From: Eukaryota sp. GEM-RC1
Lineage: Eukaryota
Direction: 5' to 3'
DNA length: 64,000 bases
Assembly (NCBI GenBank): GCA_040285855.1
Contig: JAUFOQ010000016.1
Coordinates: 1,116,001 to 1,180,000 of the forward strand
The notes below the pieces were generated by a model. It saw nothing but the letters and a program-made list of their open reading frames with translations. It ran no database searches and had not been told where the DNA came from. Each line of letters starts with the position of its first letter. Positions within the stretch are counted from its first letter, which is position 1. Shown in pieces: positions 470 to 59,210 of this stretch. The translations under genes were made by a program, and so were the position numbers.

Positions 470-533
470 TTCTTTTACTACACGTTGCTATATTGTACTA
501 CTAGTGCATGTAGACGTTTCTTTTGTATCCTGA

Positions 534-24174: not shown

Positions 24175-24373
24175 GATGGTTTGAAATTAGATGTTGAAAA
24201 TTGTAGTAAAACTTCAAACTACCCTGTACTGACCTCCACTTTTGAACGAGACTTGAGGAACTGCGCCAGGGTGTAGTGGAAGGTTATTTTCAGTCACTGT
24301 TGTCAACAGTAAACCAGTATATGTAATATCTTAATTTATAGTAAATGGACATTCATCACAGGGTTAATAGTGG

Positions 24374-24747
24374 ACATTTGTAACAACAACATTTGTAACT
24401 ACAACATTTGGTGATACAACATTTGTAACTACAACATTTGTAATGACAACATTTGGTGATACAACATTTGTAACTACAACATTTGTAATGACAACATTTG
24501 TAACTACAACATTTGTAATGACAACATTTGGTGATACAACATTTGGTGATACAACATTTGGTGATACAACATTTGTAACTACAACATTTGTAATGACAAC
24601 ATTTGGTGGTACAACATTTGTAACTACAACATTTGTAATGACAACATTTGTAACTACAACATTTGTAATGACAACATTTGTAACTACAACATTTGTAACT
24701 ACAACATTTGTAATGACAACATTTGGTGATACAACATTTGTAATGAC
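24374..24747 (+). repeat. 15-bp minisatellite, ~25 units ACAACATTTG(TAACT/TAATG/GTGAT), read as TTFV[TM]/TTFGD upstream of 2A
   Basis: Directly visible array with three recurring unit variants. Confidence 0.95.
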
Positions 24748-27700
24748 CACCGCTTTCTCTGTCACTTCAATGGACACAACGTCTTCCTCTTGTCGTCTGA
24801 TTTCGCTTTCCCCTGCTTGGTCAGTTGATGATGACGATGAGATGAAGTCTTGTAACATGGGGTGTTGTGTTCTCTCTACAGAAGGAAATACATCGTGGAT
24901 ACGTGATCTTTCGGTTGATGGTGATATTGAACTCAATCCGGGACCTCCTCGTTCTGTACGAGGTTCCTCTACCCCACCAACTATGATCGATGCAAAGATA
25001 ATCAGAGCTTCTTCCTCCTTATCACATGATACTCAGCCACTACGAATACGAAAAGAGCCACTACGAAAACAGATTAAAAGTTCTAAGACAAAAAGATGAA
25101 GTACCACAACATCAGGAGGCACCGTTGTTGTCGTGTTTGGCATGATACATATTCACATCCATTTGTTAGGTCAGGTAAACTCGACGGGTTGGTTGTTTGT
25201 TCATGTTTACAACATCTAATGATTGATAATGATTTTGAACATTTGACAGATCCTGCTCCAGATGTCATCACTGAGCCAGATAATAGTTCACGACGCTCTT
25301 TTCTCGATCGAATTCAGAAGGAATTGTGCTCACCCGGTTGTTGGCCTTCACTGTGGAAAATTGAGAATTTTATTATTGCCAAACATTATGAAAGTATTGT
25401 CGCTGAATGTCAACGTAGTGAAAATCATCCTATTCTCTGTTATGACGATGAAGTTTTGGACGCACTTCATATTTATTGGCAGGATCTCCAGGATCCAGAA
25501 AAAGAATGTCGCTTCCTATTCAACCTAATGGATTTCAAATTACCATGCATCAAAATGATGAAAAATGTCGGTCTTTTAAGCAACCTTTTGTCATTTTATT
25601 GCACCATGCCTTTATTGTTTAATTCCGGGGCACCAATATGAAAACTGTCCCTTTGCAGTTGCCAATTATAGTGATGTTACATTTAAGTTTAAATCATTGT
25701 ACGAAAACATTAACCCAAACGTTTTGTTAAGACCTGAAGTAACGCTTGATATCTTATTGACAATGCTTCATATGCAATTAGCACAGTCAGAAAACCAGGT
25801 CCTTAAAGTGTATGATGTTGATACAAATCAATTTACACTGGAAATGTACAGAGTAAACCAAGAAGTTATTAAAGATTTTGCTAAATCGACAGAAGCTGTT
25901 CCAAATTTTCAAACATTGGTCTTTGATATTGCGCAAATTCTTCTGTTAATTGAAGAGGACGAAGACACTGAAAAGATTGATACTGAAAAGAATGATACTG
26001 AAACAGCTGAATCCGATCAATTGTATACTCAAAATGCTCTTAATGATATGTGTAATCAATTTAAGGCTATCAGAGATTCATCATGGACTTCTCAACTACT
26101 GTCAAGATTTTTTAATTTGTGTTCTGTAATTGAATATTATATGTATGTGGATACAGCTGATGTCATCCGTATTGAGAAGGAAACAGTCATTGAAACTGAA
26201 AAGATGAAGAAACAGGAAACATCATTGAAACTGAAAAGAAGTTGAAAATAGAAAAGTTATCCGACATAGGTATACCTTATTGGAGAATTTTTTTGGAACA
26301 AGGTTTGAAAGTGCAAGTATGTTGCTGTTCCAATTGTCTTTTGTGCCTATCATCATTATACTGCACAAACTTCTCCATGTCTAACGTCTTTTTGTCTATC
26401 GGCTATTAATTATTTAGTCTCAATGACATGGTATCTGCCAAATCACCAAGACTACTGTGAGTTATTCGACATATACACAGAATGGAGACATCCCCCTCTA
26501 TTTTTAAAAAGAACATGAAACGGTGGAGATTGTACTGCCACAAGAGGAAAAAGTTGACTCTATTGAATATCCCATCAATACCTCAAAATTAGCTAATCTA
26601 AAATCTTTTGTCCGACTGAGCGAATTTCTAAGTTCGGTTGTTGATATTTTGACCAAAAATGATGAATGGAATACTGCCGTTGACGCTGACCAGCTTAACT
26701 TTGAATTGGTGTTGTCTTGTCTGCGGTTAATTCATAGTGCACGGAATTGCCGTATTGCCTTTGTCAATGAAGGATTACAAACTTTTTCGATCTGATTGAG
26801 ATGTTTCGTCTAAATTATATTGATGATAATTGTACTATTCCTTTCATCGTTTCTGGTGAAACAGGTTCGGGTAAATCAGTTTTAACTGGCGTTGTTGTTG
26901 TTATGGTTACTCTGGAACCAATCATTGTCTGCCAACCACGAATTTTACCAGCAACAAAACTATCAAATTTTATCAACGATTTGTGTGATACTACTTTTCC
27001 CTTGTCTGGATACCGTACAGGCAATAAGAACACAAATATCCCTCTGAATTCACACAGGTTTATTGAAGTTCAAACTGCTGCTTATACTTCTAAATTTATA
27101 ACGAACAACAAAAATGTTGAAAACTTTATGACAATTATGGTTGATGAAGTCCATGAACAAAAATGTGATATTGACATTTTGTTAGCTCAGCTGAGGATTA
27201 TTTCTCGAACTCCTCGATCTCCTTTAGGGCACAAATTGAGGGTTGTCATTTGTTCAGCTACTATGGACACTCCAAATCCTTGTTTCAGATATTTAACTCA
27301 GGATTGTAGGAACCAGTCATTTTATTTGAATTGTGAAAACAATTATACCATCCATGCTACTGGCAGAACCAACCCACTTGTTGTTGTTGACTATGACTGC
27401 ATTAGTGTCAATACTTTTTCCCAGACACCGTTGGTAGTCAACTTGTCCAAATCAGACTTTTCGAAGATCGTGAGGTTCTAACCCATTTTAAGTATCACTT
27501 TTGTAAAATATATCAATATTTTACTAGCAGTGTCTGTCGTTACTACTCTCATTTCGTCAAAAATTTGAACCCAATTTCACACAAGAGTATAAACTTCAAA
27601 GCATTGGCTCAAGTTTGTCTCTGTTATTACTCGCTTGCACAGTCAATATTCAAGCGGTTTTCTCACTGTGAAGGATTTACGTTGCTTGTGTTTCTTCCTG

Positions 27701-30700
27701 GTAGTCCAGAAATTACTACGCTTACTCAGTACATTGAGAATGAGTATACATTTCTCCTTAAACAGAAAAAACCTGATCTTGATGTATCACGTACAGTTAA
27801 ACCAAATGTTCATCCTTTATATTCAAGCCTGGATTCGAATCAACAAGACACGGCAGTGGCGAAACCAATGGAGAATCAATTCAAAATTGTTCTTGCTACA
27901 AATATAGCAGAATCTTCACTGACAATTGACGGTGTGAAATTTGTCATTGACTGTGGTTTGTCGAAACAAACGGATGTTGATGATCTTCTGGAAACTCATC
28001 ATTGCTCCATTGCTTCTTTGGACCAGCGCTCTGGTCGTGCTGGTAGAAATTCAGCTGGATTTGCGTTACGTCTTGTAAGTACAAAATTCCTTCCAAACAG
28101 TTTTCCACGATTAGACTACGACAAACCTGAAATATTGACATGCTCATTAATTGGACCATTGTTGACGATAAAACAAATTGCTACTGACCCTACGTCTTTC
28201 ATCAACGAACTGCCAGATATTCCTTCATCAGAGAATATCCTATCTACAGTTGATGTGCTCTTCCGCAACAATGTTCTCACACAAAACAACCTCGATTCTG
28301 AGTTGACTTGTTTGGGGAAGTTGTGCAGTAAGGCGAATATTTCGTTCTTCAATTTTAAATTTTTGTTTTATTGTGTTAAAAATGATTATCTCTCTCAAGG
28401 GTTGATTATGTTAGCTGGTATCAACTCTATGTCGTTTATTCGCTGTCATCGTACTTTTGATTCATTTTATGATTTATTCAAATTTTCAGAATCAATTGAT
28501 GTATTAAAATCTCTATCAACTTTGGGTAATGATGAGGAAATTTCTGAATTTGTTTGTTCAGATATGTTTTTAAAATTATCACTGGTTGATTACATTTTTC
28601 GTGCAAAATTTACTAAACTTCCGGTTGAAAAATACGATTCAACAGAACCAAGGTATAAAGGCGCTATTGATAATCTATCTAGATATGTACATTTAAAAAA
28701 ACTAGAGAGATATTTGAATGAACTAAGATCTCTTGTTTCACGGTTCCAGTATATGGAAGACTCCCCACCTACTCTTGTAAAAAAAATTAGTTAATCTTAA
28801 GTCCACTGCCTTGATGCTGTTAAATTTTGTTACCAATCCTTCCGAATCTACTCTCGTTGAATTTCTTCAACAATCATCGATTTTTGTTGTACTTTTTGTC
28901 ACTCTTCAAATTCAGCAATGACCCTCTACCAAGCAGTTGTGGCCTCGTATCCCAATAAGGCCATCCACACAACTGTGGTAAACAATTCATCTTCTCAAAT
29001 CCAATTGAAACTGTATGGCAGAGTTAAAGACAAAGAATCTTTTGACAAATTTATTGAAACGTTGTTTGGTAAACAGTTCGTTGTTCAAGGGTTGTTAAAA
29101 CAGGGTAAGATTCCGAATTTTGGTATCTACTTACAAGACAATGAAAGTTCCACTGCAATATTTACATCACATTTTTCTGATCAGTATCAAGATCAATTGT
29201 TCATTCACAAGTGTAGTGGAAATGTAAATTCAATTAAGAAGTTCAAAATCAAATTGTACTTTGACCACAATAGATTCTTTAGTGGTCGTACGATTGTATG
29301 GGATAAGGCAACAGAATTTATTAAAGACAAATCTTTTTGGGAAATGTATAGTCAATTGTATCATTGGGATCACATTGAATGTTGTGAGAAAAAAACTATT
29401 ATGCTACAATTTGAAGTTGCTGCAAAACCATGTACTGATTTAATTCAGTACAATCGTCTTGACTATGAGAAATTTTATTCAGTCAACTGTAACAAGACAC
29501 TGTTTCCTCTTCCTACTGTTCTAGCTCCTACTAGTGATACTGCAAGTTACCACAATGGAATTTTTGTTGGAGACAAGCTGCCCCAATTATTATCATTTAT
29601 CCCGTGCACAACTAATTTGTTCATCATATGGTTAATGAACTTCAATATTAATTCAGAATCAGAATTAGAATTTGAAAAACCAGTTGTCAAGATCGGTAGA
29701 CCAGATCACTGTTCTGACAACAATTATCTTCAATTATATTTATTAAGTCACGAGCTAGATCTTAATGGAATATTTCAAGTTAAACGTCTCTGGAATGTGT
29801 TCTGGTCTTATCAAGAATCATTTATTGAATCAACTTTTGGATGTATCAACAGATTACGCATTCTGGTATATTTGACTGAACAAGGAATTGTTTCTTCAGT
29901 TGATTTATCCGCTTTTTATCAAAGAATTGCTTGTATTGATTTGAGTAGATTTGAGGATCAATCAGTTGCTGTGGATTTTGTCGAAAGAAGACATCATCAT
30001 TTTCAGCTTTTGAAATTTCAATTGAGAGATGAAAGCAACATGTTGATGTGTTTTAATCCTTCGTGTCCAATCTGTGGGATACTATCTGTTGATCTAAATT
30101 CTATTTTGAATTCTGAAATTACAGTTCGTACTGAACAAATGATTGCTGAAGCTACTGAAATTGCTGAAGGTACTGAAGAAATGATGGAAGCTACTGAAAT
30201 TGCTGAAGGTACTGAACAAATGATTGCTGAAGGTACTGAAATTGCTGAAGGTACTGAACAAATGATTGTTGAAGCTACTGAAGAACCATGTGTTAGTGAT
30301 TTATTGTCTTGGACTAATACCAATTGTAAGGTCAATACTTATTCTGCGACATATTTGGGACAAAGTTGTAAAATTCTGAATTTTGTACATAATTCAGGTT
30401 CTTTGTTCTATGTTGTATTTGAACAAGAGTTCAAAATCCACATTGGAACATTAGATTTGGCAGACAACAACAGTGTCGTTGAGCATGTGACGGAGGTTGA
30501 GGCTGTGACGGAGTTCGATCCTACTCCTGTCGTGTTGTTTGTTGGCAAAAATTTTGTTTTCTACAACAATGGTAAAGTCCTCAAATTTTTTAAACGTAGC
30601 TCGGGAAGAGTTGAAGAATTCTGCAAACCCTTTGAACATCAATTAACAATGTTTGCTCTTCATGGCCAATTGGGTGGATATGCTGTACTGGTAGCTTCTG

Positions 30701-31953
30701 AAGGTCCCAAATTTTTTCTACATTACAAGAAGCCATCTGGAAAAGTTGGTCGAAAAGCATTGCCATGTGCACCAAATCGCAGTGACCCCAATGTTATTGA
30801 CATGGTTGGTACATCCAATTCTTTCAATTGTATATCGAATTGTATATTGTCGGTTATTTCAGTTACAGAAACTGACAAAAAAGACTTAGAATGGGATTCT
30901 CTTTCAATATTGTTAGATTTAGATGATTTAACAATTGAACGCGGAGAACAGTTCAAAAAATTAAGACGTTATGATAATTTGATATTAATTGTTGGTACAT
31001 TTACCATCCGAAAGCTAGATTTGTATGAAAAGCAGCTGCTTGATACAAAAGTAATGGATCTTTGTACATGTCATCACGATGACAGAATTATAGATGCAGT
31101 CTATGTACAACGTTATGACACAATAATGTACATCACGGAATTTGGGTTCTGTGTTGGTTTCGGTTTGAAACTACCAAAGAAACAGATTCAATTTATTATT
31201 GATTGTTCATGTGGTGAGTTAACAGGTCAACTGTTAAAAATCGATTTTTGCAATGATTTAAATTCTTTCATTGTTCTGAAAAGGATGGAACACTGTTAAT
31301 GCTTTCAGCATTATCTGTGATTGGTATTTCTGGTGTACAATTCATGATGTTCGTTATTGTGATTCAAAAAATATTTACGAACAACGAAGTCTTGAACTAC
31401 GTGCTTTAACTGTTCAATCGCCTCAACAGGTTCAACAAGTTGAGATTCGTGTTGTTGAAGAAAGTGCTCATCCCATCGACATTGATACAACGAAAAGACT
31501 TCAGTTTCTTTCATCTAAATGGAATTTTGATGAAAAAATCAACAAGGTGAAGCATTTGTTGACTATATTTGAGTTACAAAAGTTGTAATTACAACTGATT
31601 CAGTTGAAAAAGTAAGGAAACTTTCAAGGCTTCGTCCTGAGATTGCTTTTAGAGTTGTGACACTAGAGGGTGGAAAAGGACGAAAGATTACATCGAGTCT
31701 GAAAACATTCAATGATAATTCTGATCCTGTTTTATTGATCAGTACTACTCAATTAGCGGTTAACCATTCTGTTCAGGCTGATCTTTGTATAATCTTTGAT
31801 CTGCCAAATGATGCCAGACATGTTCACAAATTGTATGAACATAATCAAAAAATCGTTGTCTTTTACGATTCTATCAGTGATAAGGACAAAAAGCAAAATT
31901 TGGAAAAACACTTCTTTAGACCCTCAGGATTGCAAGCACTTGATTTTATATAG
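24443..31953 (+). CDS. Large 2A-led protein: Cys/His domain, CCHC knuckle, helical region, DExH-box (DEAH/RHA) RNA helicase, long C-terminal region, RecA-like tail; broken by several frameshifts
   Basis: Knuckle CLYCLIPGHQYENC (~25607-25648, alternative frame). Helicase motifs GETGSGKS, QPR, DEVHE, SAT, LVFLPG, LATNIAESSLTIDG, QRSGRAGR. The breaks checked (~26785, ~27460) fall in T-runs. Confidence 0.8.
24905..24946 (+). other. 2A/StopGo ribosome-skipping motif DLSVDGDIELNPG|P
   Basis: Matches the canonical D(V/I)ExNPGP consensus with a WIRDL lead-in. Confidence 0.9.
30128..30283 (+). repeat. In-frame coding repeat (TEQMIAE/ATEIAEG)
   Basis: Repeated ACTGAAATTGCTGAAGGTACTGAACAAATGATTG units. 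Confidence 0.85.
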
Positions 31954-33359
31954 TCTTTCAATAATTCATTGATGTTTTTTATTATGTAGAACAATATACT
32001 TTATTACAATTTTTCTTTATTTATCAAGAAGTTGATTGATTGGGTTTATCTGGTCTAAATTTATAATTTATACCATGATTTTTCACATAAACTATGCTAC
32101 CACATCTACACTGAATATGTAACAAATTGGTCTGGTTTTGTATGTCACATTTTCTGACATACTAAATCTGTAACAAATTTCTGTCAGATTTCAGGTGGAT
32201 GAAATTCACGGATTGTTCTGTATGTAATAGCTATGTAACAAAACATTGATATTTAGACTACGTCTGACACATTTCATTGAACATTGTAATATTGTACAAA
32301 TATTGTTTATTTGATGTGTTATTCTTATATGTTATACAAAATTATAAATACATCTATATTGTACTATTTATTCTCTATCACTATCAATTCATTTTTTTAA
32401 AGTCTTTTTGATTCCAAAAGCACTTGCAGTAGTTTTCATTCTTCGTTTTCCTGTTTTTTCCCTAAAACTTCATTTTCGTCTTTTCTTTAACGATTTGTTT
32501 TCAAATTTTGTTCTTGAACCATCAATTACATTTTTTCTGTCACCAAGTCAGGTTGTACACTCTGAAGTAGATCATACATAACAAGACATAGATTTTTTCT
32601 TGATCTGTTAGTGTATAATTTTGGGATAAATGTCAAATATACTCATTTCCCAAATCAATAATTCACACATACTCAAAATGAAATCAAAAATTCATGACGG
32701 TTTTACACTATAATGACTCTCATACAAGGAGCTACCTTTCCATCCAAAGATCTCTGAAAACAAGCTGTACATGAAGAACTTACTGAAACAAGAACGAAGT
32801 TGTATAACAACACTGAAGCGCTACAGTGTACATTGCCAAGAAGACTTGTTTACATGGAAACCGTCCGATTCTGCTCCTGGATTAAAGCTGCCATGGGTTA
32901 ATAAATCTATAAAATAGAAAAACAATCAATTTATTGGAAACAACTCGTAGAAAAGCTATGACCAAAATGAATGAAAGATTCAACAAACTTAAGAAAATGA
33001 AAACAATGTGCCAGAAGATGTAAGAGTACTACTACAAAGGCAGCAGCTTTTCAGGTTGTTGCTTCGTTAACTTGTCCAACAGCAGATGTTCCTGTAAAGA
33101 GTGGCAGGAGAAGAAAGTCCAATGTGTTCACTTCGTCTGAAAGTACCACTAGTAGAGTTTATTGGTGCAGTACATCGAAACAGTCTCTTGAAGTTTTATG
33201 TCCGAAATTGTAGTGAGTTCGAGCAACAGGTAGCACCTACAATGGAAAAGCAGAAGAATGGTCCAGTTACTGAGAGGTAGAGGTCAAGAAGGAAGGATCC
33301 ATGATGATATGGATGTAGTGTCTGTAAGCATCAAAGTGTCTGTAAGAAGAAGGGACATA

Positions 33360-34882
33360 CTATGAAGTCATGCCAGAACAAGTTGATGAGTAGGTGATAC
33401 AACAGTGGTTATAAGAAATACAGGGAGATTGAAGAAGCAGAGATTTATGTGGATATTGACTGAGTACAGATTGAGTATGGTTTGAATTTTTGATTTCAGT
33501 TTGAGTAGGTGTGAAATATTGATTTGTGGAATGAGTATAAATGAATTTTACCCATAATTTTGTCTGATTTTGTTCCTGACGTGCATCAACCATTAATCCT
33601 TGTAAAATTAAAGTAACATTCAAACAGACAATCCATCCACAGATAAGAGACGATGTTGACTGTGCAAAAGGAATATAGTAGTCCACCTTATACTCTGGTA
33701 ATCTTGCAAACAGATTTGTTTCCCCACATCCATAAACAGTTCTAAAAGGATTAACGATTAATTCAGTGGTTAATGAATAATCCAAAAAATCATAAATATT
33801 GAATAATAAAACATTTGCTTCATTTAGAAACAATTCAATGACCAGATCCTGCATCACCAGGAACATGTTCTTTCACCAAACATAATGGGGCAAGAATTCT
33901 TTTCCTGATTTTAGTGTATCGACAATAGCCTTACCAGAATGTAAGGCATAGCATATTGGATCACCTACCAACTGTTGAGTTTCTTGAGATTGCAGGAACT
34001 TGTACCTACTTGATTTAAATTTTTGGAATGCAAGCATCACAATGAAATCAAGTTCAGAACTCAGCAAGAGTTGTGTTTTACCTTCCCTATCATCCTTTGT
34101 CAACATTTTCTCAATATCACTAAATCCAAATTTTAATTTTGAATTTATGTAAAACTGATCACTGATTAAATCTACAGAAAGAATCAACGGGTTACGTTGT
34201 TTTTTGCGTTTCATAGGTTTAGATAAATTAGCATTATCACTGACTGGAACAGGAACTATTTCAGATGGTTCAGAGAAAATAGAATGAATATGATTGATTG
34301 CGAAGTTATCAATACGACGTTTTGGTGAAGGAAAAACGACTTGAGATGGAGTATCGTCAATGCGAGTAATGTCACAATCATGTAAAAGATTAGGAGATTG
34401 AGGCTGAGGAGGAGGAGGAGAAAGAGCAATTGTAACTCGTTTAACGTCTTTGAGTAGATCCTTAAGATGATTTAGAGTTGAAGTTGTTGAAGGAAGTGGA
34501 AGAGATATGTCACGCTTCTCATAAGAACCATCAAAAGGAAAGAGATGAACAGTTTCTAGATCAACATCTAGCACAATGGCAACGGCTGATTTGTAGTTGA
34601 GGCAAAAATCCATGGTACCTTTTTGAGATCATCTGGTAAGTCAGAGGTTGAGACTTCCGTTATGTGGATAGATTTAGTTCTCCAAGAATTGTATGTTCCA
34701 TAAGGAAGAAGAACAAGTGACAAGTTAACTGCATACTTATCAGCAAGCTTTACAACAAGTTTCATATATGTTTTGATGGTACGGGAACGACTTTCTTGTT
34801 CAGAAGTGTTTCTGAGTTTGAAGATTGAGTAGGACATGGGAAATTCTGGTATAGACTTTATTACAGATTTCGTTCCAGACAA
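33360..34882 (-). pseudogene. Ulp1/C48-protease-domain gene transcribed divergently from the 2A-Fanzor gene; frameshifted, with TGA at the HW position
   Basis: An alternative frame at ~33900-33830 reads RILAPLCLVKEHVPGDAGSGH*IV. It is followed by NIYDFL and FAQSTSSLICGWIV, matching the C48 His-Asp-Gln-Cys order. Confidence 0.6.
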
Positions 34883-35177
34883 GTGAATTTACATTCATTA
34901 CTTCATTACTTATTGGAATTAATTCATTTTCTTCTCGTCTACGACTATACATGGCTTTATAGCAAATGAATTCAGAAGAGAACTAAGTCAATGAGTTTGG
35001 TTATACGATTGACAGTCTTAAAGACTTCTTAAGTAATCACTAATGATAACGGATGATGGTATAACATAAGAGTTGTTTTGATGTTTTGACACTCTACTGA
35101 CTACAAGTGATAGTAGAATTGTACTGTAGTCTAGACTACAGGGATGACTGAAACATTTCATTTTCCTCTCTCCACAA

Positions 35178-38100
35178 ATGTTGGTTGTTTTACATTCTAA
35201 CAGACACTCTGTTCCGTACAAGGCTCCTCTTTTGGCCCAATATGAGGCGGAATCCCCTGCTTGGATTCTATCTCCGTTGAGTCGATATATGGATAGCTTT
35301 GTCTCCTCTCCCGTTGATGTCATGCTGCCACCTTGTTATTTGTATTTGACCCAATATGAGGCGGAATCCCCTGCTTGGATTCTATCTCCGTTGAGTCGAT
35401 ATATGGATAGCTTTTTCTCCTCTCCCGTTGATGTCATGCTGCCACCTTGTTATTTGTATTTGACCCAATATGAGGCGGAATCCCCTGCTTGGATTCTATC
35501 TCCGTTGAGTCGATATATGGATAGCTTTTTTCTCCTCTCCCGTTGATGTCATGCTGCCACCTTGTTATTTGTATTTGACCCAATATGAGGCGGAATCCCC
35601 TGCTTGGATTCTATCTCCGTTGAGTCGATATATGGATAGCTTTTTCTATGTTGTGAAAACACTTCCATCTCTGCTGTTGTATGTACTCTACTTCTATTCA
35701 TGTGTTATCCCTTCCCATCCTCCGTTCCCAAAAGACCTCACCGCCGACGGTGACATTGAGTCCAATCCCGGACCGTTGTCCAAAGACTCCCTAGAGTATC
35801 TGAATCCTGGCCAATGGATAGATGATTACGCCCTTTCTGAATACTCAAAACACCTATTCAAAGAAGCAAACCTTGATTGGGAATGCTATTTCATTACTCC
35901 AGATGAGATGTGGTCAGATTTTTTAACTGATGGATACTGCCAAAATAAGATTGATGACGCCCGGGAGAGAAGCACCAGATACTTCGCTGTTCCTCTCAAC
36001 GATGCTATGAATACAACAGGTGGATCTGGAGGAGTTCATTGGGGTCTAATGGTAATAGACTGTGCGGAAAACAACGCGATATTTGTGGATCCAATTGTTG
36101 GTTCTTCTTATCTAAGTTCTGTTGTAGATGAATTATGTAGGAAAGTAACATTGAACGTACAGAGGGTCAACATCACCAAGACACAGACTCCTAATGACTG
36201 TGGTATTTATGTTATTGGTTATATTCAAAAATTTGTTGAACTCATTTCAAGGGATGGCATCAATCCATCTTTGATCTCTATTGAACGTGCTTTAATCCAA
36301 GTTAACATTGAACTTAATGCTGCAGATCTCCGTAAACAGATTCAAAAATTGTTTACTTATGTTGACGATCAATTGTACATCAAATATTCCAAAATACTTG
36401 TATAATCAACAGGTTTAATCTTTTATGACTATGTAATTGCGCCAACTGATTTATATCCGTTATTATATGGTGACCAACCCTATAATAAATATCCATTTTC
36501 AGATTTTTTGACGCAGAAATTCTTCCAATGTGGTCAAAACAACCAACAAATGCTACCTGTTCCTGTCAATAGTGCAATGTGTGATCTTACTGCTGATGGT
36601 CGTCATTGGGGTTTAATTATTCTGATCATTTCATCTCCTACAGGTCATATTTTATTCATTGATCCGACCTACGTTGAGGATGCTTATGCCAGAGAATTTC
36701 CTGCTAACCAAACGCCAGTTGCACCATCTTCCTCCAATTTATTTACAATTGTGTCAAAAATTTATTCAGTGTTGTCAATGTGTGAAACCAGAAATATAGA
36801 ATTTATTCCATCAAATATCAAACATACTCTAACTGACTCTGGTTTTTGTGTTCTCGAATACATTGATCTTTTAATGAATTTAGATCAATCTGTGGTCATA
36901 AGGTGGACTGATGTTAAAGAACTGCTGGGTAATACCACTATTGCTGTTCACGAGTCTCGAAGTAAAATTTTGGAACATTTTGAAACTTTTAGTCCTGTTG
37001 ATTTGTCGCATGTGCCAAAAATGCCAGCCGTCCCTCCAAAACGTTTGTCCAGTTCAAGTGTTTCAACCAGTGCCACTCCTCAAACTAAAGTTTCTGCCAT
37101 TAACTTATTGCCACCGACTGTATCAAAACCTGTTCCTGCGTCTCTCACAGGTTTGCGTCTAGCTAGCACTAAAGCATCCACTGGTTTAAGCACCAAAAAA
37201 AGTAAACCCAAACTTGAACCCGTTCCCACGTCTCCAACTCCTAAACCATCAATTACAGAACAAGAACCCAAACAACCACAAAAGTTCTGTGTTATTGAGA
37301 TAAAAAGTGTGATCTCAGATCCTGAACGCTTGAATCTTAAAGTCGTTCGAGTTAAACAGGAGCCAGAAGTAGACGAAGAGATTGAATCAACTTCAGAAGG
37401 CATTCCACAAATTCAGGATACCACTTTTGAAATTCAACGTGATCCAGATTTAGACCCAATTGTGTCAATCTCTCTTCAGTTTACCCATGATAAATTTGCA
37501 AATGAAACTCACCTATTCACCCATAATGTTTCAGAAATTTCACTTCCTAATTGTGTAGTTCACACGTTTACAACTGAAAAATCAATGTTAACAAATTTCA
37601 TTACATTTTTAAATCTTAACAAGCCCAGTTTGTTAATAAGTTATGATTGGCATTTAGATACTTTTCCGTTTTTAGTATCACGATGTAAAAAATTAGAAAT
37701 TGACATTGATTATACAATTGATGATTACATTTCTTCTCTTCCATCTTGGTTCCATAGATGGTGCAAACCAACGGAAATTGGTCCTTTTTATTCCCTTGAC
37801 TTGAATTCAGTATTGAAAAAGTTGTATGTCTTTAGAAGAGGTCGGTTTTTGGAAAACTTGACAACAATTATGATGGACATGAATAATCATTCAAGAACAT
37901 TTGAAAGTTTTGACAATGAAAATATCTTCCTTAAGAGAATATTTCACTCTTTAGACAATCCTCTAGTGTCAGATGAAGAAATGAAGGTTAAAACTGAAGA
38001 ACGTCAAAACAAAGCGCCATCTGTAAAACTAAAACCCAAGGCTGTTATGGAGATTCGATTGTTAGCAGAATTAACAAAACTTAATGAACTTTGGGAATCT

Positions 38101-38217
38101 AAAACTTCGAGAACCACTTCGAGAGCCACTTTGTTATCGAACTCAATCAATAAGTTGTTTCTAATACAATACCTTCTCTTTGATCTTCTCGATGAAAAGA
38201 AGCAACAATTAAGATAA
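35178..38217 (+). CDS. N-terminal part of 2A polyprotein: SENP8/NEDP1-like C48 protease, second C48 copy with catalytic Cys>Ser, S/T/P linker, degenerate PolB-type DnaQ exonuclease fold
   Basis: Protease 1: WIDD, VPLND..GGSGGVHWGL, FVDP, QTPNDCGIYV. Protease 2: YVDD, VPVN..GRHWGL, FIDP, TDSGFCV. Exonuclease-like: DPIVSISL, FTTEKSML..F..FL...PSLLISYD...TFPFLVSRC. The ORFs join in frame across a single TAA at 36403-36405. Confidence 0.75.
35237..35648 (+). repeat. 114-bp tandem repeat x ~3.6 (38-aa unit) upstream of 2A
   Basis: TATGAGGCGG anchors at 35241, 35355, 35469 and 35584. Units are near-identical, with one extra T in a T-run. Confidence 0.95.
35734..35775 (+). other. 2A/StopGo motif DLTADGDIESNPG|P
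   Basis: Canonical D(V/I)ExNPGP. Confidence 0.9.
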
Positions 38218-38226
38218 CGACCACCA

Positions 38227-41200
38227 ATGAAGGTTGTGAAAAACGATTAGATAATGTTGTATCAAAGACCAAAGCGAATTGGATGGAATCTTGTGCTAAG
38301 AGAGCTCATCAAGTCAGAGTTCGTGGTACTCATATGTTGAAACATTTTTTCGTTACTAAGTTTCACAACTCACTAATTTTCGACAAGGTCAAAGAGATAC
38401 TACCTCCCACTGTTAAAGAAGAAATTGAAACAGACACAGAAGTTTCAGACACTGAACAAACAGAAATTTTAAGTGAAGAGTTTGTGCCTCAACAATTAGA
38501 AGAAGAAACTGAATTGCCTGTGACTTCAGACCCTGATTTTGGTTTGGATCGTACAATTGAATCCGAAATTTCAGAAGAAGACAGCCAAATTTTAGAAGAA
38601 GACAGTATTGAAAATGAAACTGGAGAACCTGAACTTGACCTTTTTACTAAAATTCAAATTACCAAATTTGAATTACCAGACTGGGGAGCTTACTTTAAGA
38701 AGGGTCCAATGGGACAACTGTTGGCCATGATGTGGATTCCAAATCACCAATTTTTCAACAGCACTGATCATATTAAAACTGTGGAAAACTCTTTAAACAA
38801 CATCATTTCTAATGCAAAAACAACAACTACAAAGAAGGAGTTCGCCCAACACTTCCTATCAAACTACATCCCTCTGTTAGAAACTGCTGGTGAAATGGTT
38901 GGTAAAGATAGGATCATGTTTCCAAGTGGACTTTATTTGTCTAACTCTCTCGGTTACGTTGCAACCGAAATTATTGCTAATTATAAGAACAACATGAGCC
39001 AACACTTTCATGAGTATGTTTTTCAAGTCTTTAACTTGGTTACTCAAAAGAAAGAGAGAGTGGAAGCTCTTACTGACAAAACCCAAAGACAAGAACTCTG
39101 TCAAAGGATTAATGAAGTTAGAGAATTGATCATTAATGGTGAAATTTCCAAAATTAATTTTGATGACAAGCAAGTTTTTACCAATCCGGAATCTCACTTG
39201 AGTATATTATTCTTCAATTATTTGTTTAATTATTTTGAAGGGAAGATGGAGAAAACGATCTACTATGCTGAAAAGAGTGATCCGTTATACTTTTTAAGTC
39301 ATGCATTATATTTGAACCGTCTCATTGAAGACTATTGTCCTGGTGTAAGAGCAAACAATCCTTTCCCGTTGTCTAAATCTTTAATTCCAAATCATATCAG
39401 GTTCGATACGCAATGGTTTCATACAATATTTCGCAGGGATATTCCCAATACTGTCAACTATAATGATGTATGGAAACTTATTTGGAATTCAGTATTAAAA
39501 CCTCAGGCTATTCCAGAGTCATTATCCTATGACTTTAAATACACTTCAATTTCGTCAGACGGTTTAAGTTGTAGTTTGTTGATGATGAGGAAAGATTTAC
39601 TTGATGAAAATGGAAATGCCCGTGAAAATGTTACAGCAGTTAATCTTGCTTCAAATGAGCGTTATATTGATTCCTTAAGTGAAGATGAAATTGAAGAACT
39701 GAATTTAAAATCTAAGAGAATTGTTGCTGTTGACCCCAACCAACATGATCTCATGTATTGTGCAAGTTTAAAAACTGATGAGGAAGAGGCATGTGAGAAA
39801 TTTGAAGTTGATGAAACAAAACAATTGATAGAAAATGGAATGACTAATGCTTGTGTTACAGAAGTTGATCTTGCTTCCAATGAACAATCTGTTGATTCCT
39901 CAGACGAGAAAGATGATTCCTCAGGTGAGAAGGAAATTGAGCCCAAGCCAGTTACCCCAACTAGAAAAAGAAAGATTGCTCCATTATCTTCTAAGAAAAG
40001 GGGAAGTTTGAAAAAATGAAAAAACAATTAAATGATTGGAAGCAAGACACTAACCCACAACCTGTAAAGTGGAAAAGGCGTGACAAATGGAAGGTGCTCC
40101 GATACACTGCTGGGGAGAGAAAGGCAGATATTAACAAATCTAGTTGGAAACCAAGAAAAAAATCAGCCATCACAGTTCCAAAAAAATTGACAAAGAAACA
40201 AAAAAAGAAAAAAAGCTAAAAAGGAACGAAAGAAAAAAAGAAATTTCAAAAACTTGAAAGAAAGCGCTGTAACAAAAACATTGTCGAATTGACTGAAAGT
40301 GAACGTTTACAGAGGTACTCAACTGAGTTTGAGAAGAGTGTGTGGAATGGTCAAAAAGTACTGGATTCCTACAGTTCTGATACTCCAAGAAGAAAATCAT
40401 GTAAATTGGAAGAATTTTCAAGGTACATGGTTAACAATGAAGTTTTCTGTGCATTAATGAGATCAACCACAACTGGAAAAGCAACTGCTGAAGGATTACC
40501 TAAAAGGAAAGGACCATCTAAGAATCTATCTAAGAAAGGACCATCAAAGAAACTACCTAAGACAGGACCAACTCAACAAATACCTGCTGCAGCTGAAGGT
40601 CTTTATGAAGAGAAATTTTTTAGACGTAGACGCCTTACCCAATATTCAAGAAAAGAACGAAGTGAACAAAACTTGGTCCACAGATTAGCTCTCCAATATG
40701 GTGATCCAGATGAAGTCGTTGTTGGTTTTGGGGATTGAAATGACACTCAATTCCGAAGAAGAAGGGGTAAGGCAAGTACAGTAAAAGGCGCTACTCTTCG
40801 AAACTTACTAAGAAAATTTGGATTTAAAGTTTTCTTAGTTGATGAATTTATGACAAGCAAATGTTGCTCTGCTTGTGCTGAAGAAAACCAGGAAGGTATC
40901 TGTTCCAATCCTGACTTTGTCAAAGTCATTGATCCTCTGTGGAAGAAGAAGTTACAGAAGGAGGAGAAGAAATTGAAAAAAGAAATTATGGAACACAATC
41001 AATTAGACAATGTTGTGAAACGTAATTTTGATGATGAATGGACCAAACAGTTGCCATTTTCGAAAGAAAGATTAAAGAGCAAAAAAGTCTCACCATGGGG
41101 CTTAGTTCAGTGTGCTAAATGTCATGTCCTCTGGAATAGAGACTTCAACTCTGCTATTAACATTTATAACATTGTAAATGGAATTATCCAAGGTCAAGGT

Positions 41201-41485
41201 AGACCTGCTGTCCTCGAGAGACCAAAATCTCAAACAATAACTATCGAGGATGGTGGGATTACAGATCAGGTTCCCAAGAAGAAGAAGAGTGTGAGTAAGT
41301 GTCAGTTTTGTCATATGGAAGGCCATACAACGGCAAAGTGTCCTCAAAGACATGTGCCTCCTAAAAGTCCTCGTACATGTACGATATGTAAACAACCAGG
41401 ACATGATAGAGGAAATTGCCCAAGTAAGGCCCAGAAAGATGTACCCAAAGACTCACAAGTAGAGAATGAAGAACCGGAATCCTGA
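38227..41485 (+). CDS. Fanzor1 (eukaryotic TnpB-like RNA-guided nuclease) with acidic/basic insertions and two C-terminal CCHC zinc knuckles; frameshifts in A-runs and one in-frame TGA
   Basis: YKNNMSQHF, FPL....PNHIRFDT, SDGLSCSL, RuvC-I IVAVDPN (D 39732), VVVGFGD[W], RuvC-II LVDEFMTSKCCSAC (E 40844), CAKCHVLWNRDFNSAINI (D 41141), GRPAVL, CQFCHMEGHTTAKC, CTICKQPGHDRGNC. Confidence 0.9.
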
Positions 41486-41489
41486 ATCT

Positions 41490-41590
41490 TATAAGTTAGC
41501 TCGTCCTAAAAGGCTTGCAAATGAGTGGCACAATGTGTCAAACTGTGGTGATAGTGCATTATGCATTTGAAATGAAATCCACAGTTTTAT
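41490..41590 (+). ncRNA. Candidate Fanzor omegaRNA scaffold / element right end
   Basis: Immediately after the stop. Stems GCTCGT..ATGAGT, TGGCAC..GTGTCA and AAACTGTGG(41540-48)/CCACAGTTT(41579-87). Contains the 15-mer shared with the second Fanzor. Confidence 0.55.
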
Positions 41591-41847
41591 CTCTTAAAGA
41601 TACATAAAGTCGTAAACAAAATTTACAATATTATTCCATGACATGGTCTTGAACCTCAAAGAGTTTCTTCAAAATTGGGTCGAAATACTGAAACATTGAA
41701 CGAAATATAGACAAAAAGAGACGATCCCTCCAAAAACTAATGTTAAACTTCTTGCCAAATTCACAATACAATTGATTAAAAGATGACAAACACGTTTGAG
41801 CTGCAGAAACCAAATTCCCATAAATAGAAATACCGAATGGTTGAAAC

Positions 41848-42375
41848 CAGGGCCTGGAAAAATTGAATTGATTGCCAATGTCAATGATTGGTATTTATCC
41901 AATGCCAATTCCAATATCTCCAATTGAACCAATCAATGTTTGAATGTTTCAAATGAAACCAATCAATGTTTGGATGTTAGATATCGGCCCAATCAATGTT
42001 TCAATGTTAAATATTGGTCGACATGATGTTTCAATGTTTGATATTGGTCAATGTTTCAAGTATTACCACTATTACTAGTAGTAGAACAACCAAATCATAC
42101 AAGATATTTATTTTGTTCATAAAGAACACGTTAAAACGACTATCTACATCAGCTGCATATTGGTATTTCTATTTGCAGTGTTGAGTGAAATAGCATAATT
42201 CGCAAAATATAATTGGCCAATGTTGCAATGTTTGAACATTATATAAATCAATGTTTCAATGATTTATGTTGAGCCAATCAATGTTTCAATGTTCTAAATT
42301 GAAATTGCGCCAATCAATGTTTCATACCAATGTATTGAAATAATTGTATTGGCAATTCAATTTTTCCAGGCCCTG
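41848..42375. mobile_element. MITE, TIR CAGGGCCTGGAAAAATTGAATTG, 9-bp TSD GGTTGAAAC
   Basis: Perfect 23-bp TIRs, perfect TSD, and subterminal CCAATCAATGTTT repeats. Confidence 0.92.
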
Positions 42376-43869: not shown

Positions 43870-46100
43870 CTACAGCTCCTTCAATCGCTCTGAGTGTTTC
43901 TAGATCTTTTAACGAGTTGAGGATTAAATTTTTTGCTTCATTGTTAAAAGTTGTTTCAACGTTACTTAGAAGTCACTTGTTTACTTCTGCTCACTTTGGT
44001 GGCATTGGTTTTACCAAATCGTCAATTTCGTGTAAATCTGCTTTTTTTAGGGGGCGGGAAAAACTTCATTTTGGAATTTTCTTATTCGATATCTCTGTGA
44101 ATTGCATTCCAAATGCATAAAGGCATTACTTGCACATTGTGTGAACAAATAAATGACCTCATTCGCAAAGACTTTTAGGACCAAATTCGTTCCCTAAACT
44201 ACTGCAACATTCGTGTCGAATTGACCGGATTTTTGGGGATTCACTTATTTCTGAGGCATTACAAGAAGGAGAAATTGGTTGCATGGGTTCTTCTTTTGGT
44301 TTGAACCATTCGGTATACGCTTCAAAAAGTTCAACATACTTGGCATAATTGTCAGAGTCATTAGCCAATGATACAATTGATTTCAATGCATACAAACAGT
44401 TTGATAGCAAAAACATATCAGTCTCTGACGGCAAAAGGAAGTGCTGATGTGCACTAAAAGCAATTTCAAACATGAAAAGATTCAACGACTTATAATGCTC
44501 ATTAAAGAATTTAAGACGGACTTGAGATTTACACATTTTGAGTGCTTCATAGAAGTAAAAATATCTTGAAATCAGACGATGTGTCCAAGAGTGTAAGCTT
44601 TGCGAGGTAGCAATAAAACAATCCCAATTTTTCAGTAATATCTGTAAATCAGGATCAGAAGATTCAGTATCAGAACCAGAACACATGTCTTTACGCGCGA
44701 AAATAATGTTGTCAATGTCGAAAACAAGATTTTGATAAGTAATACTAACTTTGGGGGTTGTATTACTGTTTTTTGCTATATCAAGGATTGCTTCACTGTT
44801 GTCGTGAAAATTCTGTAAAGAAAATTCATTGTTCTCCTTGTCATAAAATTGTACATGTCTGTTTTTAGCCAATTGTAGATGAAGCATTGTGAGAAGCATA
44901 TCAATCATTGCTTGCTTGTTAATCAAAACATTGTGATTCAACACATCATAGAAAAAATTAAAATCTTTTGCCATTGAAAATTGAAAAGGACAATCATGAA
45001 GTTGATGACCGGGTAAGAGACAACGTGGACACGGCGCAATAAATCTACAGAAACTCTTATCAGAAGTATAATCATCTACATTCAACAAGGGTTTGATCGG
45101 GGATGTTTCGTTAGGTTTATACATTTCATCAAAACATTTCTTCAACGATTGTAAAGTCGGATCGTTGGGTAAATCATAATTTATATAACATGAATCATAG
45201 AAGCGAGCTGATAACAAGTTTTCAATGTGAAAATAGGAGATATTATCTTGGGCAATTTCATAATCTTGAAGAATTTCTTTTAAGAAAGATCGATTAATAA
45301 TCCCATGTAACCGTTGAATTGACTGAGGGGCTTCATATGATAGTTCTGTCACCGTTTCGTTAAAGTGTTCGAAACAGTGGCAAATTTTGAAGTTTTGCTG
45401 CGGCCTGATGATGCAATGGGATGAACATTACAGCTGTGTGATAATCGACCACAGCGAATATGACTTTCAGATGGTTTATAAGTAGGTCTTGACTTTTTTT
45501 TGGTGGTGTAATTGAACTGACTGAGGTACTTGATTGAATGCTAGACGTTCGTCTTTTCTTTGGATATGGTGGTCCAGGATTTAGTTCGACATCTCCATGT
45601 ATTGACAAGTCTTGTTTCCATAGACTTGTAGACAACCAAATCTCTGTAACCGTCAGCACAAAAAGACATCGGGCGTTGAGAAGTGGAGGGGGGAGGGAAT
45701 TGGCATCAGAAGGAGGAGGTAACCAAATCTCTGTAACCGTCAGCACAAAAAAGACATCGGGTGTTGAGAAGTGGAGGGGGGAGGGAATTGGCATCAGAAG
45801 GAGGAGGTAACCAAATCTCTGTAATTGTCAGCACAAAAAGACATCGGGTGTTGAGAAGTGGAGGGGGGAGAGCTTTGAGAAGTGGAGGGCGGAGGGAATT
45901 GGCATCAGAAGGAGTAGGTAACCAAATCTCTGTAACCGTCAACACAAAAAGACATCGGGTGTTGAGAAGTGGAGGGGGGAGGGAATTGGCATCAGAAGGA
46001 GGAGGTAACCAAATCTCTGTAACAGTCAGCACAAAAAAAACATCGGGTGTTGATAAGTGGAGGGGGGTGGGCGTTGAGAAGTGGTGGAAGGAGGGATTCA
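43870..46100 (-). CDS. 2A-led protein, paralogue of the N-terminal half of the 24.4-32.0 kb gene, without a recognisable helicase; frameshifted or decayed
   Basis: 2A, PKKRR, HIRCGRLSH..HP..SG, FIAPCPRCLLPGHQLHDCPF, DMLLTMLHLQLA, QNLVFDI and SWTHRLISRYF all align with gene 1. Confidence 0.75.
45570..45611 (-). other. 2A/StopGo motif DLSIHGDVELNPG|P
   Basis: Canonical D(V/I)ExNPGP with a WKQDL lead-in. Confidence 0.9.
45634..46090 (-). repeat. 87-bp tandem repeat x ~5 (29-aa unit CLFVLTVTEIWLPPPSDANSLPPPLLNTR) upstream of 2A
   Basis: AACCAAATCTCTG anchors at 45634, 45721, 45809, 45920 and 46007. Confidence 0.95.
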
Positions 46101-46163
46101 CAGTTCATGAGATACTACTACATGTAGTAGTAGAGAAGAAATGCTTTCACACCCAGCTAATAC

Positions 46164-47741
46164 CATGGCCTGGAAAAATTGAACTGCCAATACAATTATT
46201 TGAATACATTGGTATGAAGCATTGATTGGTGCAATTTAAAACATTGAAACATTGATTGATATAATGTTCATACATCGAAACATTGGTCAATTAATATAAG
46301 TGAATCAGCCCTTTCACTCAAGACCACATAACAAATACCACAATACCAAATTTCAGCTATAAAATCTGACAAATATCATGGTAAATATGTTTTTAATAGT
46401 GATGGATGGATTAATCGAATTATGTTTGCTCTTTATAGACGAATTCCCAAGTATTTAAGTTCCGTTTATCCGAAGTTGTATCGGGACAATTCTCGTGTTG
46501 ATGTGGAGAATTTAACTTCTTTGATTTTTTGAATTAGTATGTATCGATATATTGTGGCAAATACACTTTTCATTTTTTTTTTAAATATATTAGTCCTAGA
46601 TATATTAGGTATATAGATGGGAGCCGGCTCAAAATTTGCTCACGGCTAAGCCGCAGGCATTAGCCAGCCGGCTGCGGCTTACAACGCATTTTAGCCAGCT
46701 CAAGCCGGCTAAAGCCGGCTCAGCCGCATGTTGGTTGATATATCAATAAAATGATTCAGAACCATTGTTAATGACAACTACACCGAGTATCAAAACGACA
46801 CAATGCTGATACTATTGATCAGTACATTCCAGTTTTCACAGATTTTACATGTCACATATTTTTGTGATTATCACTTATATACTTGACGGTTAGTTATCGC
46901 TTGAATCTGTGAAACAATCGAAACACCACTATAGAAATAGACACTGCGACAATGTACATAAGGCACTGAATGTACTATCAGTGCCCAAGAAAAACAGTAG
47001 GGCAATTATTTGACACATATCAACTATATTCACCAATTCTACTGTTGCTCGAACGTTGATAAACATTAGTAGCCCTAAACTGTTCTGTAAAGCGCTGTAA
47101 ATGATATTTTCGATTTCTAAATTCATCATTCGTTCTTTATTAGCTATGTTTTCTGAGAACCTAAAATATTCGGCTTGAGCCGGCTACAAATATATTTAGC
47201 CAGCCGGCTTGCAGCTGAAAATTTTTCTATTCTGGACCAGTCGGCTGGCTCGGCTAGCCGGCTCAGCCAACTAAATTGAGCCGGCTCCCATCTCTAATTT
47301 AGGTAGTAGAAACACAAACACAAATTTCTAGAGCTCGGCTACTTTTAGGGTATCGTGTGTCTTGTGATTCACTTGAGTTGCAGCTCTTCCGACTGTACAA
47401 TCAACACTTGTTTACTGAAACGGTGATGAGAGATGTACTGAACAAGGAACCAGTAGAAGTGGATGACGAGTTATTAGAAACATTAGATGTAGATAATCGT
47501 TTCAACTTGTCCTTTATGTAATAAACAAATAACTTTTATGATTTCCCTGTTCTACTACTAGTAGTAGCGGCTATAACAATAGCCATACAGGAAACATTGG
47601 ATCAATATCAAACATTGCAACATCATTTGAACCGATAAATAACATTGAAATATTGATTGGGACAATATAAAACATTGGAATTGGCATTGGTTAAAAACCA
47701 ATGATTGACATTGGCAATCAATTCAGCTTTTCCAGACCCTG
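46164..47741. mobile_element. Second copy of the CAGGGCCTGG MITE family (inverted orientation), 9-bp TSD AGCTAATAC
   Basis: Ends CATGGCCTGGAAAAATTGAA / TTCAGCTTTTCCAGACCCTG and a perfect 9-bp TSD. Confidence 0.88.
46612..47296. mobile_element. Nested MITE with TA(G/T)AGATGGGAGCCGGCTCAA TIRs
   Basis: 21-bp TIRs with one mismatch, AGCCGGCT subterminal palindromes, and imperfect flanking direct repeats TATTAGGTA/ATTTAGGTA. Confidence 0.8.
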
Positions 47742-55383: not shown

Positions 55384-55622
55384 TTTCTGTGGATTTCATT
55401 TGAATTTCAATAAGAATTCCGAAGAATCCATTTCAAATTTTGAAATGGATTCTTCGGAATTCTTAGTTCACAAATTACCCATTCACAAACATATCTTGGG
55501 AGTCCATTGTAAAAGTAGGAGACCCAAGGAGATCAACCACAAACGCTCCTAGACTAATGAGTTCCGATCTCTGTTGGAAACATCATCTTCCCTCTAGGAG
55601 CAATACATGAAAGATAATATAA
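55384..55622 (-). ncRNA. Candidate omegaRNA scaffold / right end of the second Fanzor
   Basis: Stems at 55545-53/55593-601 and 55495-500/55523-28, a perfect 27-bp hairpin at 55411-55465, and the shared 15-mer at 55387-55401. Confidence 0.6.
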
Positions 55623-58593: not shown

Positions 58594-59210
58594 GTAAATT
58601 AGAGTGTAGTAGTAAACCATAACTTAACTTAGAGTCTAACGAGTGGCTGGTGTAGTTCCCGTAAAGGGTTCAAGAAGAATATGAGTCATATTTAAGTGAT
58701 TCTACTGGAATTAACGTAGAAACATGATTATTACTCTTCAAAATTGTGAATTTGAAGAAATTATTATGATTGTACTACTAGTAGTTACCTGTGCAAATTT
58801 AACACCATCTTAAACAGTTTAAAGATGATCATACAGTAGCCAAAAAAAACAGCAACTGACAGCTGAATAAATATTAAATTATTTCTATTTTTCGCAGGCT
58901 GTAGTTGTTTTTTTGCATGACTTGTCAAAATTGAAATCATATTCATTAGCTTATATTCTTTAATGAAAAATTTTACAACATCAACGTACAAAGTATGGAG
59001 ACCGAGAAAATAGGCCATAAGAAACCACTTAGAAATCTAATTAATTCAACACACCCAAATCAAAACAAACAGATGTCACTGGGAAGTATCAAAGAATCAG
59101 CTTCTAGATATCACGTCATCATGAATAAGTCTTGCAATTGGTAGACAAACAAGATGTGCAAACAAGAAAAACAAAGTCAGCATTCATTTACTACTTTAAG
59201 AAGTAGCATT

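Follow-up and report, generated by a model that had tools for sequence, protein, structure and literature searches.

A probable 2A-led fusion of a C48-type protease, a PolB-type exonuclease fold and a Fanzor1 nuclease in Eukaryota sp. GEM-RC1

Introduction

Described Fanzors are compact, stand-alone nucleases, and a locus of Eukaryota sp. GEM-RC1 raises the question of whether a Fanzor1 can also be the last part of a long polyprotein, and what a protease would do in such a protein. The locus occupies positions 35178-41485 on the forward strand of a stretch of 64,000 nucleotides, called the window here, which corresponds to positions 1,116,001 to 1,180,000 of contig JAUFOQ010000016.1 (assembly GCA_040285855.1). 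A preliminary description, made from the sequence alone, had proposed a leader of 114-bp repeats, a 2A peptide (DIESNPG/P), a C48 protease with an intact active site, a second C48 copy with Cys changed to Ser, a PolB-type exonuclease fold without its acidic motifs, a Fanzor1 with three RuvC acids and two CCHC knuckles, all joined in a post-2A protein of about 1900 residues. Each of these parts was recovered at the locus, and comparison with related proteins makes it very probable that they belong to a single reading frame, as had been proposed. The architecture is real and apparently undescribed, and the copy in the window is itself very probably a dead pseudogene.

Domain organization of the locus

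The modules follow one another on the forward strand in the order leader, 2A, two C48 domains, linker, PolB exonuclease, Fanzor1 and zinc knuckles. The leader open reading frame (ORF; 35178-35715) is an ATG-bearing, in-frame tandem repeat whose 114-bp unit (38 amino acids) is present in 3.6 copies at 35231-35647; an extra T near 35530 shifts its frame. The 2A/StopGo-like peptide (35716-35775) carries the exact motif DIESNPGP from 35752, with Gly 35770 and Pro 35773 flanking the predicted skip. The C48 (clan CE) protease (35776-36340) has H36037, D36088, Q36184 and C36199 in place and scores above the Pfam C48 cut-off (E 9e-6), and the second copy (36341-37005; H36604, D36661), which has no Pfam match of its own, is homologous to the first (E 5e-7), with Ser36838 replacing Cys and the oxyanion Gln gone. 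A Ser/Thr/Pro/Lys-rich linker (37006-37284), 37 amino acids shorter than in most paralogues of subfamily A (see below), precedes the PolB-family 3'-5' exonuclease domain (37285-38214), which is above the cut-off for Pfam DNA_pol_B_exo1 (E 2e-7) and has its ExoI, ExoII and ExoIII acids replaced, as they are in subfamily B.

The Fanzor1 with its C4 zinc finger (38215-41250) is similar to SpuFz1 (E 6e-14 and 3e-8). Its RuvC acids are D39732, E40844 and D41141, and the terminal RD is also present. Six codons separate E40844 from C40862, and in Fanzor1 the catalytic Glu stands six residues ahead of the zinc finger (PMC13565253). The spacer leading from the first Asp to the TS motif is about 373 amino acids long, and 281 in the distant relative P0070, against 125-275 in the 2013 Fanzor1 pattern (PMC3627910); low-complexity inserts make up the excess, and the motif residues are all present. 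In homology and in fold, the family lies nearest to Fanzor1 when set against Fanzor2, TnpB and Cas12, the fold being compared through the model of P0070. Two CCHC zinc knuckles (41300-41341 and 41378-41419), preceded by a basic stretch resembling a nuclear localization signal (41273-41287), lead to the stop codon of the fusion frame at 41483-41485, and the post-2A product amounts to 1,904 amino acids once the breaks of this copy are bridged.

A single reading frame across the family

The frame of the window copy is interrupted seven times, by four in-frame stops (TAA at 36403, 38215 and 40217, TGA at 40736) and three one-base frameshifts (at about 35530, 38240 and 40016). The caveat of the preliminary description, that TAA codons stand at 36403 and 38215, is correct for both, but breaks number seven rather than two. 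The fusion was examined through related proteins, of which 57 distinct ones were retrieved: five are encoded in the window, and 52 are named as hypothetical proteins of Eukaryota sp. GEM-RC1. They are predicted gene-model proteins, the DNA having been seen for the window copy only. Each module is present in 7-15 named proteins, spread over several contigs, and two subfamilies, A and B, are about 45-50% identical in the region of the exonuclease-Fanzor junction.

The paralogues read through the doubted positions. All eight named paralogues spanning TAA 36403 have Glu there, and all eight named sequences spanning TGA 40736 have Trp, which belongs to a conserved GDW motif. TAA 38215, which might have separated two adjacent genes had it been conserved across copies, is replaced by Glu in eight of eight subfamily-A sequences, whose frame continues into Fanzor. 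These proteins match the window DNA plus one base at the junction, which therefore offers no room for an intron. The junction is also passed in frame by eight subfamily-B sequences (two more B fragments stop short), so that 16 named paralogues in total keep the frame across it. P0001, P0007 and P0015 run from leader into 2A in a single frame past the shift near 35530, P0043 and P0033 bridge the position of the frameshift near 40016, and P0049 and P0055 unite RuvC-II, RuvC-III and the knuckles. Only TAA 40217 is bridged by P0070 alone, the other breaks being bridged by named paralogues. Among the overlapping single proteins, P0016 holds leader, 2A, both protease domains, the exonuclease and the first 55 amino acids of Fanzor, and P0040 extends from the exonuclease through RuvC-I, with P0004 as a further member. 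Since no single protein holds both the protease and the RuvC domain, the full chain is tiled from such overlapping copies.

A different explanation would have two products, chiefly the protease-exonuclease part, with Fanzor made rarely, by a programmed -1 shift or from an ATG of its own. In six of the seven B-type sequences (P0008, P0016, P0018, P0023, P0024 and P0025) the frame is indeed lost at a common site, about 55 amino acids into Fanzor. Their tail, read one base back, matches the read-through copy P0065 at up to 9 of 11 positions (0 of 1,000 shuffles), and the residues at the site are compatible, at the protein level, with a U-rich slippery run. However, subfamily A keeps the frame across the same site, the residues of P0065 imply that the run is interrupted at the place where this copy reads through, and the ends of A-type models cluster at homopolymers, as nanopore errors or slippage would produce. 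Recoding or separate starts are thus improbable as an account of the family, and the common frame exit of the B copies would reflect a programmed -1 shift or else a homopolymer error of a systematic kind.

State of the window copy

All three frameshifts of the window copy fall in runs of 5-6 identical bases, whereas three of its stops lie off such runs, at positions where the paralogues have Glu, Glu and Trp. An alternative genetic code was considered and ruled out, as TAA, TAG and TGA alike are used to terminate 11 host-like ORFs of the window and the paralogues have Glu or Trp at the stops; because all three codons serve as stops in host-like genes, those of the window copy are true breaks. 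The copy is very probably dead, given three off-run stops where all relatives have sense codons. That it is intact and merely misassembled is scarcely credible: the position of the frameshifts and the apparent source of the paralogues in an early nanopore assembly would suit this account, but indel errors cannot explain the off-run stops, and a single-copy host ORF of 1,397 amino acids in the window is unbroken.

The paralogues may be in a different condition. Ends of A-type gene models lie within 9 nt of a run of at least five identical bases in 16 of 27 cases against a background of 15%, a rough count in which the script misplaced at least P0043 and one site was counted twice. To judge by the organism name, the named paralogues presumably come from the 2017-era nanopore assembly of the study 10.1101/2023.05.03.539051, which reports the use of early nanopore reads with Illumina correction. 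Because model ends cluster at runs and the assembly is of this early type, many paralogues may be intact in life, or decayed by slippage.

The protease domains

The catalytic Cys of the first domain is retained in 14 of 15 named copies, P0026 being one of the 15 counted, across two protease types that are about 41% identical. In the second domain, Ser replaces Cys and Gln is absent in 12 of 12 named copies and in the window, which points to a catalytically dead copy. The structural model is weak, with a mean predicted local distance difference test score (pLDDT) of 49, about 60 in the first domain and below 50 in the second, whose fold the model does not confirm. Its top Foldseek match is DEN1/NEDP1 (1xt9); by VIA, XopD, NopD and NEDP1 are tied within 1 Z unit (Z 15.9-16.2), ahead of SENP1/Ulp1 (12.6-13.2). 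The earlier label "SENP8-like" is thus apt for the nearest eukaryotic fold, which is tied with bacterial XopD and NopD, but gives no firm indication of the substrate. With SENP8/NEDP1/DEN1 (1xt9, 2bkq) and XopD/NopD the first domain shares the H-D-C triad and the oxyanion Gln; it differs from them in having 17-21% identity and in lying inside a nuclease polyprotein beside a tandem dead copy.

Processing of the polyprotein by its own protease, which the preliminary description had suggested, would release free protease, exonuclease and Fanzor. Viral clan-CE proteases cleave at Gly-Gly, and the poxvirus I7L and African swine fever virus pS273R enzymes have the same fold (Z 13.5 and 11.8); a single Gly-Gly is found at 41252, before the knuckles. 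Yet in the stretch from the protease to the last RuvC acid, in RuvC-III, Gly-Gly is absent from the window pieces and from P0040, which disfavours self-processing of the viral kind, and the viral enzymes are less similar in fold than NEDP1, XopD and NopD (Z about 16). Such self-cleavage is very unlikely.

Elsewhere in the window, a separate, conventional Ulp1/SENP-type gene is located at 6761-7978 (+; Pfam E 8e-18), which suggests that the host has a SUMO-type pathway.

A distant intact relative

An exhaustive search for relatives gave 244 representative hits, many of them fragments, of which the best 150 were examined. None of these 150 contains a C48 domain, and an exonuclease or a 2A occurs in P0070 alone among them. 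P0070 is an intact ORF of 1,473 amino acids in which a 2A is joined by a PolB exonuclease, matched by Pfam at E 5e-13, and by a complete Fanzor1 with the RuvC acids D1037, E1316 and D1414; it has neither protease nor knuckles. It aligns to the exonuclease of the window and to both halves of its Fanzor, the C-terminal half in a single frame at 40004-41248 (E 6e-46). Its exonuclease retains ExoI, ExoII and ExoIII, which subfamilies A and B have lost, and is best matched in the PDB by Pol delta (E 4e-4), with Atlas concurring (0.95). In the model of residues 269-1442, the Fanzor part is mostly confident, with a template-modelling (TM) score to SpuFz1 of 0.73-0.75 over the target, and the exonuclease part has a pLDDT below 50, so that its fold is not confirmed by structure. 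Foldseek matched this model to three Fanzor1 proteins at E 1e-14 to 1e-19, against E 0.2 for Fanzor2.

In a quick tree, P0070 clusters with the window family (SH-aLRT support of 86, unstarred). The tree had 54 rows, nine chosen from the family and the first 45 others, out of 131 of 156 that passed a length filter. The grouping allows, but does not prove, one origin of P0070 and the window family. Historically, the family probably started from a chassis of 2A, exonuclease and Fanzor, into which a protease was taken up and then duplicated, while the exonuclease lost its catalytic function.

Viral contigs contained no relative of the window Fanzor or of P0070, and metagenome contigs gave two weak partial matches. 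P0071 (266 amino acids) passes from RuvC-I directly to RuvC-III and keeps one knuckle, resembling an internal deletion or a mis-spliced model.

Leaders, 2A peptides and module shuffling

The motif GD(V/I)ExNPGP is exact in the window, in 13 named paralogues and in P0070. At least five types of leader, with repeat periods of 27, 33, 38, 42-58 and 76 amino acids, stand upstream of this same 2A, and behind it come either a double or a single protease (about 41% identical), followed by a linker and exonuclease of A or B type. To judge from these combinations, the copies are mosaics of leader, protease and exonuclease modules. The leader and 2A layout suggests how a mobile element could exchange promoters and start codons with its protein unchanged.

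Among known 2A-bearing elements, retrotransposons lacking long terminal repeats (non-LTR elements) of the APE type (L1Tc, Ingi, CR1, L2, Rex1) also have GD(V/I)ExNPGP near the N-terminus of a long ORF, as well as zinc knuckles (PMC3708506). The window element differs from them in that no AP endonuclease, reverse transcriptase, poly(A) or A-rich tail or target-site duplication was found; a non-autonomous copy would, however, have no need of a reverse transcriptase.

Two other 2A motifs in the window, at loci 24371-31953 (+) and 44159-46110 (-), also lie behind tandem repeats (periods of 15 and 87-111 bp), with unrelated cargo. The ORFs downstream of these motifs are homologous to each other (E 1e-34) and have a CCHC knuckle, both loci finish in the 3' motif described below, and the first runs on into broken DEAH-helicase ORFs.

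The 3' tail and the ends of the element

The 99 nt after the stop codon (41486-41584) had been described as a structured tail. This was not confirmed: four folds gave z-scores of +0.04 to -1.4 against shuffles, the best of 32 sliding windows reached -2.4 (41540-41599), and there was no match in Rfam. A short-word search from the tail showed that its last bases recur after a second Fanzor (15/15 nt) and after another 2A-led ORF (23/26 nt), and a fourth recurrence, after the helicase ORFs, was seen by eye. A 13-nt motif at 32199-32211 (+), 41572-41584 (+), 44095-44107 (-) and 55387-55399 (-) closes four loci of unrelated cargo. The pattern has four exact matches in the window against 0.06 expected, a contrast that overstates the case, as the pattern was built from these same sites. 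Each of the four sites is on the sense strand, at a distance of 64-258 nt from the end of the last ORF, and a hairpin is predicted at the motif or immediately ahead of it.

The shared motif is read as a common element end, which would place the end of the scaffold at 41584, and it is a candidate signal of one mobilising enzyme. The RNA of SpuFz1 is 88-90 nt long (PMC10432273), and the tail ends 99 nt past the stop; by its length and its shared end motif it is a candidate omegaRNA scaffold, the guide of which would correspond to the next bases. A 16-nt end motif was also looked for in viral contigs, where 20 scattered matches were taken as chance.

As noted before, no transposase is recognizable nearby. 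None of the four motif loci has a target-site duplication, and the longest match between the flanks of the fusion element is 7 nt within 3.2 kb upstream. An 18-bp perfect palindrome (35124-35141) lies 37 nt 5' of the first ATG and could be a promoter or element-end feature; each end of the fusion element thus has a hairpin, but structures of this sort are common in the window, where this is one of 20. Fanzor-carrying Helitron2 elements CRe-1/2/3 (PMC3627910) resemble the fusion element as non-autonomous Fanzor1 elements with a terminal hairpin beside TTTT and an end motif common to unrelated cargo loci. The asymmetric inverted repeat of Helitron2 was not distinguished at the 5' end, where the best upstream match (10/16) is within background, and no RepHel is encoded in the window. 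The gene family is multi-copy and likely mobile.

The second Fanzor mentioned above (55623-57410, -) is very divergent and has one frameshift; its named paralogue P0062 (596 amino acids) is intact. Its tail contains a 55-bp near-perfect hairpin (55411-55465) and shares its last 15 nt with the fusion element.

A model for the intact element

Fanzor1 is RNA-guided, with an RNA derived from the tail (PMC10432273), and restorative homing has been shown for TnpB and proposed for Fanzor (PMC13565253). An intact element would encode in one frame a swappable leader, a 2A, a C48 protease with an intact active site, a pseudo-protease, a disabled exonuclease, Fanzor1 and the knuckles. Ribosomes could start at any ATG of the leader, and because skipping at the 2A would shed it, the same protein of about 1,900 amino acids would result from any 5' module. 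Fanzor1 would load RNA from the 3' tail of the element, with a guide extending into flanking DNA, and would cleave the empty site that the guide matches, whereupon repair would bring the element back. Through the attached protease, proteins at the targeted chromatin or close to it would lose their SUMO or NEDD8, which would ease silencing or steer repair. The dead protease copy would likely bind the modifier, and the dead exonuclease and the knuckles would likely bind nucleic-acid ends; in the older form seen in P0070, the live exonuclease would likely trim the cut DNA ends or the 3' end of the guide. Mobilisation would depend on an enzyme supplied in trans. We infer that the leader is shed, that the element homes and that the protease, being tethered, works on SUMO or NEDD8 where Fanzor1 is targeted, and with this the coupling of DNA targeting to deSUMOylation or deNEDDylation. 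Taken as a whole, an element protein with a guided Fanzor1 and a tethered protease is somewhat favoured, with a little better than an even chance of being correct.

Several observations weigh against this model. All named copies are fragments, one copy only was seen as DNA, protease and RuvC occur together in none of the retrieved proteins, and no named paralogue spans 40200-40427. Four of six named A copies end at one site near 40017, and six of seven B-type sequences shift at one site just past the exonuclease-Fanzor junction. A 2A motif alone is insufficient for activity, as it skips only in a suitable upstream context (PMC3708506). The folding of the tail is not significant, and neither a transposase nor a target-site duplication nor a terminal inverted repeat was found. 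The grouping of P0070 depends on a quick, unstarred tree, and as this protein has no protease, the Fanzor chassis does not need one.

The last point also bears on whether the protease matters for targeting at all. Ulp1-type cargo is common in transposons, and the fusion could be real with a protease that is passive cargo acquired through module shuffling, acting cell-wide or not at all and having no link to the guided site. The free recombination of leaders, single and double protease modules and exonuclease types among copies would fit this, as would P0070. However, 14 of 15 named copies have preserved the catalytic Cys, although they belong to two protease types of about 41% identity, and the frame into Fanzor is maintained in both exonuclease subfamilies, so that passive cargo is unlikely, although less so than recoding or self-cleavage. 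The preferred reading of a tethered protease carries a wider meaning: that diverged subfamilies keep the frame from a protease into Fanzor points to signalling in chromatin or repair as the obstacle facing such nucleases, and the link between the two is testable by a single point mutation.

A broader proposal is that Fanzor1 serves as a modular RNA-guided chassis, in which the 2A is a socket for exchangeable cassettes of promoter and leader and a slot behind it held first a live exonuclease and later a modifier protease. The family would then be the first natural RNA-guided deSUMOylase or deNEDDylase, in an undescribed class of elements with one 3' end motif. This is speculative, with perhaps slightly more in its favour than passive cargo. 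If it is true, P0070 would be a natural cut-and-chew editor.

Relation to known systems

SpuFz1 (8gkh; PMC10432273, PMC3627910) resembles the window Fanzor in sequence and fold, in the RuvC triad and in the Glu spacing, and Fanzor1 genes are likewise multi-copy without a linked transposase, their stop being followed by a tail of about 90-100 nt. The window protein differs from SpuFz1 in its size (about 1,900 against about 630 amino acids), in the added N-terminal 2A, two C48 domains and PolB exonuclease and the C-terminal CCHC knuckles, and in its long acidic and Lys-rich inserts; no terminal inverted repeats were found for it. The exonuclease resembles the proofreading domain of family-B polymerases, with Pfam DNA_pol_B_exo1, Pol delta and archaeal PolB as best PDB matches and all three Exo motifs in P0070, but no polymerase domain follows it and the acids are replaced in both subfamilies. 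An engineered fusion of T5 exonuclease to SpuFz1 also joins an exonuclease to an RNA-guided nuclease (PMC13434818), whereas the window family is natural and of the 3'-5' PolB type instead of a 5' exonuclease. P0070 is a candidate natural exonuclease-assisted editor, a design already engineered by hand.

The combination, which the preliminary description did not know of, was not found in the literature either. No paper joining Fanzor1 with Ulp1 or a cysteine protease was found in the full-text literature outside subscription papers and Repbase, and an architecture of Fanzor with a protease fusion, an exonuclease, PolB or extra domains was absent from titles and abstracts among the matches listed. 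No natural fusion of protease or exonuclease to Fanzor was found in the passages searched of PMC10530073 (its domain-architecture figure S1B excepted), PMC3627910, PMC10432273, PMC10711439 and PMC13565253. The main text of two 2A surveys does not mention Fanzor.

Other features of the window

Diverging from the leader lies a gene at 33363-34837 (-), of no known kind, with no Pfam match and P0059 as its single named paralogue. An insertion of 940 bp, bounded by inverted ends of 78 bp (32617-32694 and 33483-33560), overlaps the 3' part of this gene. Downstream of the fusion element, at 41847-42375, there is an element resembling a miniature inverted-repeat transposable element. Its ends are inverted, and by eye it appears to be flanked on either side by a 9-bp direct repeat; ends related to these are located at 46162-46299 and 47486-47741. 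The rest of the window resembles a gene-dense protist chromosome. Host genes at 360-6385 and 58594-64000 form an inverted segmental duplication whose arms are mostly 94-97% identical, and the second arm has frameshifts in two genes.

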